Shown in pieces: positions 23,188 through 24,131 of a stretch of DNA of 64,000 nt. How positions within the stretch are numbered: the stretch's first letter is position 1; every line of letters begins with the position of its first letter. The translations under genes were made by a program, and so were the position numbers. The notes beneath the pieces were generated by a model. The model searched no databases. It saw only the letters and a program-made list of their open reading frames with translations, and had not been told where the DNA came from. Origin of the DNA: a virus (lineage: Duplodnaviria > Caudoviricetes); the IMG/VR virus record IMGVR_UViG_3300020576_006644, positions 1 through 64,000 of that record. One strand, written 5' to 3'.

Positions 23188-23290
23188 GGCAGAGTGGGGC
23201 TAGCTACTGTTCGGTACGGTATAGCCTGGCATTGCGTGGTGTGGTACGGCCCGGTCCCGTCAGGCGGGGTTTGGTGTGGTAATCCAAGGG
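23188..23290 (+). ncRNA. GGY-NN pentamer array 3 (putative guide RNA)
   Basis: 19 in-phase triplets (13 GGY) with 18 NN, ending AA-TCCAAGGG. Confidence 0.78.
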
Positions 23291-23324
23291 TAACAACCCA
23301 ATGGCTGTGAGGTATAACTACTTC

Positions 23325-24131
23325 ATGGCCATTGGTGCATTTGGGGTATCTCCCTACGGAATTTCCCCGTTTGGCGGCGTCGTCACCATCTCGATTCTGG
23401 AGTGCTACCCGCTCGGCAGTCGGTCGCTCTACGCTCGCTTCAACACCGAGCCCCTCGACAGGAGCCCCGTCTCCGACGGCGACTGCCAAAATCGCAAGAC
23501 TTGGGATTTAACCCGCGACGATACCGGCGAACGCATCGAGGTGATCGGCGCGATTCGGCTGCGGCTACCCGAGGAGCGAAAACTCGTTTTGCTCTCGAAC
23601 CTCGGCCCGTTCGCCGTCCAGCACACCCTGCGCGGCAGCCGCCTCAAGACCTCGGGGAGGCTGCCGGCGGCGCCGCCCACCATGGTCACTTTCCAGGGGG
23701 TCGACGTGGACAAGCCCAGCTTCGGCCCGGCCTCCCGGCGCCCGCGGATCGTGGACCTGCGCAACGACAGCTTCTTCGGGGAGGGGGTGGCGCTGCGCAC
23801 CGACTCGGGCGGCAGCTACGCCACGCAGACCGGGGCGAGCGGCCTCCGCAAGCGCATTCTCCGCATCGTCACCACGCCGCTCGGCTCAGACCCGGCCGAC
23901 CCGTCGTTTGGGTGCCTGCTGGCGCTCGGGGAGCTGATCCGCGACCCGGCCGGGCAGAAAGCGCTCGTGCTGGCGCAGGTGGTGCGCGACCCGGAGGTGG
24001 CGTCGGCCACGGTGTCGCTGGAGGTGAAGGATGAGGGGGTCGCCTACTTGACGGTGAAGGCGAAGATGACGGACGGGCGGCAGGACGTGGCCACCCTGGC
24101 GGTGGGGGATGCGGGGGTCAGTCTGGCTTAG
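23325..24131 (+). CDS. baseplate wedge protein with C-terminal gp25/gpW-like domain
   Basis: LRKRILRIVTTPLGS...PSFGC...VVRDPEV motif; TATAAC 6 nt before the ATG. Confidence 0.7.
   Translation: MAIGAFGVSPYGISPFGGVVTISILECYPLGSRSLYARFNTEPLDRSPVSDGDCQNRKTWDLTRDDTGERIEVIGAIRLRLPEERKLVLLSNLGPFAVQHTLRGSRLKTSGRLPAAPPTMVTFQGVDVDKPSFGPASRRPRIVDLRNDSFFGEGVALRTDSGGSYATQTGASGLRKRILRIVTTPLGSDPADPSFGCLLALGELIRDPAGQKALVLAQVVRDPEVASATVSLEVKDEGVAYLTVKAKMTDGRQDVATLAVGDAGVSLA

Follow-up and report, generated by a model that had tools for sequence, protein, structure and literature searches.

What does a run of short GGY-NN repeats read when it lies between two baseplate genes of a phage, directly downstream of a Cas7-like gene, and why does the neighbouring gene partly match what it spells? 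This question is raised by the 64,000-nucleotide stretch analysed here (positions 1 to 64,000 of the IMG/VR record IMGVR_UViG_3300020576_006644; hereafter the window), which belongs to a phage genome of 112,623 bp with direct terminal repeats. The run of repeats, array 3, is very probably the gene for vrRNA3, a guide RNA of the VIPR kind, and this grading applies to our explanation as a whole: the guide is directed at the baseplate wedge allele of a rival phage, and the carrier’s own copy escapes it.

VIPR systems combine a Vipr protein with guide RNAs (vrRNAs) made of GGY/NN repeats with a 3′ tail, which are read by a one-base-skip code where the skipped base is the codon wobble position (bioRxiv 10.64898/2026.04.26.720920). 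They silence double-stranded DNA, their targets being located in competing phages and satellites; natural targets were called at an NN match of at least 80%, no self match reaches 80%, and perturbed NN pairing abolishes silencing (bioRxiv 10.64898/2026.04.26.720920). Structures of the filament and the triplex have been presented (bioRxiv 10.64898/2026.04.26.720927), and phage–satellite conflict has been described together with solo guides whose self-match is below the non-self match (bioRxiv 10.64898/2026.10.15.759431). Both the gapped code and the use of guides against rivals are prior knowledge, set out in these 2026 bioRxiv preprints.

On the plus strand, positions 23188–23282 comprise 19 in-phase xGY-NN pentamers, 13 of them (12 of the first 18) with a strict GGY and the others with AGY, TGY, CGY or GCT; such internal degeneracy of the GGY-NN repeats is frequent in published vrRNAs (VIPR preprint). 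The NN series given in the initial annotation proved identical for the first 18 units on re-reading, and the pentamers are in phase; its 18-unit guide has to be shortened, as the three units next to the tail (23268–23282) match no allele and 16 units are informative. The guide gene comprises the following parts.

23188..23267, plus strand: guide tract of vrRNA3, 16 target-pairing xGY-NN pentamers (15/16 to the allele on contig L003, 11/16 to the own allele, see below)
23268..23282, plus strand: three tail-proximal vrRNA3 pentamers, GGTTT GGTGT GGTAA (0/3 in L003 and in the own gene; no allele matched)
23283..23305, plus strand: start of the vrRNA3 3′ tail, TCCAAGGGT and a small GGG/CCC hairpin (3′ end not defined)

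For matching, the guide was used as a gapped reverse complement with a period of 3, in which two bases are paired and one is passed over (NNx). Two tail-proximal units are likewise unpaired in each of two further guides considered below, vrRNA1 of the same cassette and the guide of a sister phage, L001. The TCCAAGGGT tail directly 3′ of array 3 is common to two other clear arrays of the 112.6-kb genome, and a ATCCAAGGGT motif is invariant across six arrays of the clade; the 3-bp GGG/CCC pairing occurs in four of the six, with no covariation and no pseudoknot demonstrable. Rfam gave no match for the arrays, and all of them were missed by Tandem Repeats Finder.

The allele that this guide spells was recovered from a metagenome. 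It belongs to the gene that starts immediately behind the array.

23325..24131, plus strand: baseplate wedge gene (phrog_43 baseplate wedge subunit, E 2.8e-5; longest open reading frame (ORF) from 23301)

The orthologs align from M9, which corresponds to ATG 23325, so that a start at this codon, as assumed in the initial annotation, is more likely than one at 23301. The closest ortholog, P0121, is 94% identical overall, with differences in the first ~40 residues, and is encoded on contig L003. There the spike gene (1464–2090) adjoins the wedge gene (2092–2901) with nothing between; this 3-kb metagenome contig documents an empty site at this place, not an absence of VIPR elsewhere in that phage. 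Array 3 matches L003 2137–2184 in 15 of 16 units (94%) and in 31 of 32 paired bases, in frame and with the skipped base at the wobble position, the matched segment being codons 16–31 of the L003-type wedge gene. None of 1,000 shuffles reached this score (maximum 8). When the skip rule was varied, a period of 3 gave 15/16, and periods of 2, 4 and 5 gave 5–6; the outcome was the same for vrRNA1 and the L001 guide. By wedge allele, the match of array 3 amounts to 15 units out of 16 in L003, 12 in L007, 11 in L004–L006, 11 in the own gene, and 10 in L008, L011 and L013. These scores indicate that the guide is tuned to one allele, that of the closest relative in which this site is empty, and they agree with the initial annotation, in which a competing relative’s ortholog was named as the target (15/16 in L003 versus 11/16 in the own gene). 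The search among orthologs thus yielded a near-perfect match at an empty site, whereas the 18-unit pattern itself, as derived in that annotation, found nothing in IMG/VR. Similarly, a 16-unit pattern with one free unit gave nothing in IMG/VR or in GTDB genomes, a scan of IMG/VR for wedge orthologs found none, and a metagenome scan for them returned seven loci, none above 12/16. The target-bearing DNA was reached only via a protein homology search, not via pattern scans.

The phage’s own wedge gene contains a weaker match.

23367..23414, plus strand: own near-target in the wedge gene, PFGGVVTISILECYPL (11/16 units; in frame with 23325)

The gapped reverse complement of array 3 scores 11 of 18 dinucleotides at + 23361, in the wedge frame, which reproduces the in-register match reported earlier for 23361–23414 and corresponds to 11/16 over the pairing units. 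The next-best scores over the 128,000 window positions on both strands are 7 on the plus and 8 on the minus strand. For the 16 pairing units, 11/16 (69%) is the best score in the whole 112.6 kb; the shuffle control, which had been proposed along with the match, gave a maximum of 9 in 300 permutations of the NN order, none of them reaching 11/16. Other gaps perform worse in the own genome, as 0 or 2 skipped bases give 7 and 3 skipped bases return only the array’s own antisense strand (a trivial match), and a scan of the own genome for the decoded pattern with up to 3 mismatches found nothing. Since both the shuffles and the other window positions score lower, the own-gene match is real and well above chance. 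It represents the background of a conserved peptide motif, because distant orthologs score 10–12/16. The guide is mismatched to the own near-target at five units (TTT, GTC, TCG, CTG, and TGC), and with 5/16 units differing the own wedge allele lies below the match level of natural targets. The earlier proposal that the own copy has diverged enough to avoid self-targeting is therefore supported, 11/16 being under the published 80% cut-off.

One might suppose that the own match is functional, and that weak binding of Vipr–vrRNA3 tunes or times the phage’s own baseplate operon. The near-target is indeed 85 nt downstream of the array, and 11/16 is significant against shuffles; however, the foreign allele fits far better (15/16), and the own score is no higher than that of orthologs only 53–60% identical as proteins, for which shared motifs suffice. 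In addition, the dependence of silencing on NN pairing and the lack of self matches at 80% (bioRxiv 10.64898/2026.04.26.720920) speak against such cis-regulation, which we consider very improbable.

In VIPR systems the guide acts together with a Vipr protein, and the only RAMP gene found stands alone among the baseplate genes, with no cas operon and no CRISPR-type repeat detected by Tandem Repeats Finder or Rfam.

22554..23171, plus strand: vipr, encoding a 205-aa RAMP/Cas7-like protein (phrog_4652, unknown function; profile match to PDB 36pp)

At least 158 homologues of the vipr product occur in metagenomes. The profile built from 51 of these matches one solved structure, PDB 36pp_D, “SUSP1 Vipr protein”, over residues 2–185 (E 4.2e-14), and the AlphaFold2 model of the 205-aa protein (pLDDT 87) has the Csm3/Cas7 backbone subunits as the best solved folds in Foldseek. 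In the HMMER alignment, GLGDFRP stands opposite GVGDWRP and HRP opposite YRP, while H17 aligns with N22. In SUSP1, GGY is held by D177/W178/R179 and R138; the counterparts here are D182/F183/R184 and R143, all four of which are invariant among the 51 homologues. The GGY-contact roles of these positions were established for SUSP1 (bioRxiv 10.64898/2026.04.26.720927). The homology of Vipr together with the aligned GGY-holding residues implies that the locus belongs to the known VIPR kind. A tblastn search of the Vipr protein against the GenBank phage collection found nothing, and so did an IMG/VR scan with the single protein; a later alignment-based scan of IMG/VR yielded 80 loci.

The comparison with L003 delimits the cassette to which array 3 belongs. 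By blastn, L003 is 96% identical to the window over 18072–19454, 94.7% over 21561–22030, and 92.8% over 23406–24140, and it is unaligned between the last two segments.

22031..23405, plus strand: divergent tract, 1,375 bp for 308 bp of L003
21594..22274, plus strand: baseplate spike/hub-like gene (weak Pfam Phage_base_V match; last ~245 nt diverged)
22307..22376, plus strand: repeat tract of vrRNA1, 14 units, of which 12 pair
22089–22124, plus strand: own near-target of vrRNA1 in the spike gene (7/14 at 22083, in frame)

The divergent tract consists of the diverged spike 3′ end, vrRNA1, array 2, vipr, vrRNA3, and the diverged wedge 5′ end, in this order. Arrays 1 and 3 flank vipr, and the whole unit is located between the spike-like and wedge genes, upstream of baseplate J. 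vrRNA1 matches the spike alleles of L005/L006 in 11/12 units and that of L003 in 10/12; the own spike end gives 7/12 and carries a 9-nt insertion that disrupts the vrRNA1 register. As judged from these alignments, vrRNA1 does for the spike gene what vrRNA3 appears to do for the wedge gene, and the targets of both are situated within the replaced tract, near its outer edges. The G+C content at third codon positions of the diverged gene ends is 0.48 (spike, 22029–22274) and 0.63 (wedge, 23325–23405), compared to 0.94 and 0.90 elsewhere in the same genes. Since wobble changes are useless for an escape from VIPR, this shift may point to a foreign origin of the gene ends or to selection against recombination.

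One divergent tract of 1.4 kb thus unites vipr and the guide with the escape alleles of the baseplate genes on either side. Freely recombining phages risk self-destruction if a guide and the resistant allele are separated, which would favour keeping them in one recombination unit, and this linkage is most likely the reason for the layout of the cassette. The combination of a guide, an effector, and resistant target alleles as one recombination unit in an essential baseplate operon was not found in the 2026 bioRxiv VIPR preprints cited above.

The sister phage L001, whose Vipr is 94% identical to the one analysed here, carries its cassette at another place: between the homologues of window positions 34912 and 34737 (minus strand), where it replaces window 34738–34911 (174 bp) and adjoins an array 4 homologue, a 319-aa gene, and a small helix-turn-helix gene. 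Its guide, encoded downstream of the L001 vipr, fully matches a site in the window.

34773..34808, minus strand: site matched 12/12 by the guide of the L001 cassette (L001 3038–3107), in the 3′ end of a plus-strand ORF ending at 34890

Here the wobble base is skipped as well, with shuffles reaching at most 9 and other skip rules 6. The L001 copy of the target has diverged, and the target is inside the 174 bp replaced by the L001 cassette. Because its match is 12/12, the phage studied here is itself a predicted VIPR target of its sister phage; no case of sister phages that target each other from cassettes at different sites was found in the 2026 bioRxiv VIPR preprints cited above. In total, there are three well-defined guides at two insertion sites, and each of them spells the gene adjoining the cassette in its cassette-free form.

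These three guides also bear on the idea that the repeats carry no code, that GGY serves as a loading platform for an RNA-binding protein and the NN spacers are uninformative. The TRAP 11-mer binds GAG/UAG repeats, and the 3+2 periodicity of the arrays resembles TRAP sites; the overlap of array 2 with the ribosome-binding site of vipr would be compatible with autoregulation. Such a reading is hardly tenable, as the NN series of these three guides, which are independent of one another, agree with coding sequence at 92–100%, under a single skip rule and in the wobble register only, and for arrays 1 and 3 it is refuted by the shuffle and skip-rule controls.

To the three guides, which are directed at relatives, a wider comparison of self matches may be added. 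The 80 IMG/VR loci with Vipr homologues contain 175 arrays, and in 11 of these, array 3 included, a self match is significant against shuffles (p <= 0.01; ~1.75 expected). All 11 self matches are at a distance of 60–988 nt from their array. The ten loci other than that of array 3 (L018, L022, L031, L049, L061, L067, L070, L075, L078, and L090, all from IMG/VR) have the signature of a guide beside its diverged target: the self match is sub-threshold and outside the arrays, and it falls in a neighbouring open frame with the wobble position skipped. If this pattern is general, the targets of vrRNAs are to be sought in the neighbouring gene of relatives, and a homing-like spread of VIPR as well as the origin of new guides become testable. 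It was also considered whether every guide is complementary to the strand on which it is encoded, an orientation that would hint at an origin by fold-back copying; this was dropped, since only 3 of the 11 significant cases are so oriented.

Carriers of the cassette and non-carriers clearly co-occur in the same samples. Each of three samples (runs X5, X9, and X12; one wastewater RNA library, one river metagenome, and one coded organism) holds a cassette-bearing contig, and other contigs of these runs depart from the window sequence at 22030, to proceed with the spike end of the L003 type. Several alternative alleles of the spike end and the wedge start are joined to the window sequence at 22030, 23366, and 23400 (runs X5, X9, X10, and X12), the last two being further 5′ variants of the wedge gene. 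The end points of the tract vary by sample, the left being 21977 or 22030 and the right 23366 or 23400. By summed contig depth, a poor measure, the flanks exceed the cassette several-fold. A sample of runs SRR29782965–7, from which P0003 and P0122 come, likewise holds both a Vipr homologue and a spike–wedge junction free of the cassette. An X12 contig with an L001-type array 2 followed by vipr and array 3 identical to those of the window implies that the cassette itself is mosaic.

With such populations in mind, the guide may be given a further role. A filament formed on naive alleles would stall replication or transcription, and repair would copy the cassette together with its resistant flanks into the rival, so that VIPR would act as a selfish RNA-guided homing or drive element, the rival genome being disabled until the cassette is acquired or recombination being provoked directly. 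Free-standing homing endonuclease genes in T-even phages copy themselves and their flanks into rivals. These genes, like the TnpB/IscB omega-RNA guides, represent selfish cassettes which recognise the cassette-lacking allele near the insertion site, and their carriers are protected by flank differences that travel with the cassette, a likeness to the cassette described here. In accordance with this, the three well-defined guides all target replaced sequence, each within ~200 bp of an insertion junction at two independent sites, the targets occupy the outer edges of the divergent tract, and the end points of the tract differ among samples. Moreover, no tyrosine integrase, serine recombinase, or resolvase was detected in the whole genome, which makes a virulent phage probable and would place the conflict in lytic co-infection, where phage recombination is frequent. 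Nevertheless, the cassette contains no nuclease, the published type II systems repress and do not cleave, no conversion events are in evidence here, and the idea gives no account of how guides for a new site are acquired, whereas selection for linkage alone accounts for the adjacency of guide and target. We therefore regard homing, which would extend the guide function proposed above, as rather unlikely. If it were true, the presence of one vipr lineage at two sites with site-fitted guides would mean that guides are renewed for new insertion sites or direct insertion into them.

Returning to a guide that silences a rival allele, the following mechanism may be suggested by homology with the system of Escherichia phage SUSP1. 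The Vipr protomers would coat vrRNA3, one per pentamer, with GGY buried and NN presented, and the filament would read double-stranded DNA with two bases paired and one skipped, blocking transcription of the rival’s baseplate operon. The L003-type wedge gene would be invaded, and the own allele would escape via its five mismatched units.

Several points weigh against this explanation. L003 is the sole sampled allele at or above 80%, and no perfect target (16/16 or 19/19) was found. The Vipr described here is distant in sequence from the experimentally studied SUSP1 Vipr, and DNA silencing is an extrapolation from it. Neither a promoter nor a terminator was found around array 3, which may accordingly be processed from the vipr transcript; the cassette does occur in contigs of wastewater RNA libraries, and these contigs cannot show transcription, as they possibly derive from carried-over DNA. 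There is no vap gene beside vipr in the spike–wedge cassette, where vipr is the sole gene, although this is not strictly disqualifying, because VIPR loci only “typically” include vap (preprint). Finally, the spike and wedge proteins are diffusible, so that the rival’s silenced copies could be complemented in co-infection, which puts the selective benefit in doubt. The problem of complementation would disappear if the bound filament had a polar effect on the late operon, if it halted replication or packaging, or if it provoked recombination at its site (homing). With these points taken into account, we hold it highly probable that array 3 encodes a VIPR guide against a rival wedge allele and that the own copy escapes. 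The locus would then represent a clean natural example of the gapped VIPR code outside the enterobacterial and Pseudomonas clades, with a real target recovered from a metagenome.

Among the known systems, the locus is closest in appearance to type II VIPR (Escherichia phage SUSP1 and a Pseudomonas fulva prophage), with which it shares a lone RAMP homologue, GGY-NN guides, a conserved 3′ tail, the wobble-aligned one-base-skip code, location in a phage, targeting of a rival mobile element, and the lack of a self match at or above 80%. It differs from type II VIPR in the tail, which is TCCAAGGGT here, in the length of the guides (16–19 units compared to 9–16 in print), in the 2–3 unpaired tail-proximal units, in the absence of vap from the cassette, and in the adjacency of the guides to diverged copies of their own targets. 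The targets differ too, as they are essential baseplate genes of near-identical phages here, but a satellite recombinase or prophage regulators in the type II systems in print. Solo vrRNAs and vrRNA-targeting vrRNAs are similar in that they aim at close relatives, and the homologous sequence of the carrier scores lower, which avoids autoimmunity (bioRxiv 10.64898/2026.10.15.759431). The same study interprets wobble alignment as preventing mutational escape. However, solo vrRNAs target vipr genes, other vrRNAs, and satellites, whereas the guides described here target the flanking genes, the resistant alleles of which are within the cassette tract. Class 1 CRISPR-Cas filaments (Cas7/Csm3 on crRNA) have in common with VIPR the RAMP fold, the glycine-rich loop, the thumb, one protomer per guide repeat, and periodic base flipping (bioRxiv 10.64898/2026.04.26.720927), but the locus has no repeat–spacer array, other cas genes, or adaptation module, and VIPR reads 2/5 of the bases compared to 5/6 in CRISPR. 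In contrast to homing endonucleases and TnpB/IscB, no nuclease is evident here, and recognition would occur by a gapped RNA code.

The remaining elements of the system are as follows.

22248..22430, plus strand: likely vrRNA1 transcription unit (promoter-like site 22248–22277, array, tail, strong intrinsic terminator 22391–22422, and T run; consensus matches only)
22482..22553, plus strand: array 2, degenerate, in the vipr leader (ATCCAAGG tail continuing into the AAGGAG ribosome-binding site)
36463..36522, minus strand: repeat tract of vrRNA4, with a TCCAATCCAAGGGT tail to about 36440 (upstream of a 314-aa gene, 13 kb from vipr)
34887..35420, minus strand: sigma-70 region-4-like helix-turn-helix gene, a candidate accessory (vap-like) gene (weak Pfam Sigma70_r4 matches below the cut-off in both copies)

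Array 2 is kept upstream of vipr in L001 and L002; no target was found for it, the array being too short for one to be assigned. vrRNA4 has a homologue at L001 641–700 with three NN changes near the tail, and no match at or above 80% was found for it in any sequence compared. The sigma-70-like gene directly precedes vipr in L001, but in the window the two genes are 12 kb apart.

Two features outside the cassette also distinguish the window from L003. Within the wedge gene, which is otherwise 93% identical, positions 23481–23512 form a patch of dense differences (DCQNRKTWDLT versus DVSNRRTWDLT, with many codon changes), possibly the footprint of a further guide or else a mosaic joint. A segment of ~2.1 kb (19455–21560), located between the NADAR and spike genes, is present here and absent from L003; since a DUF8224 gene occurs at the same place on the contig of P0122, it looks like a variable slot for accessory genes.

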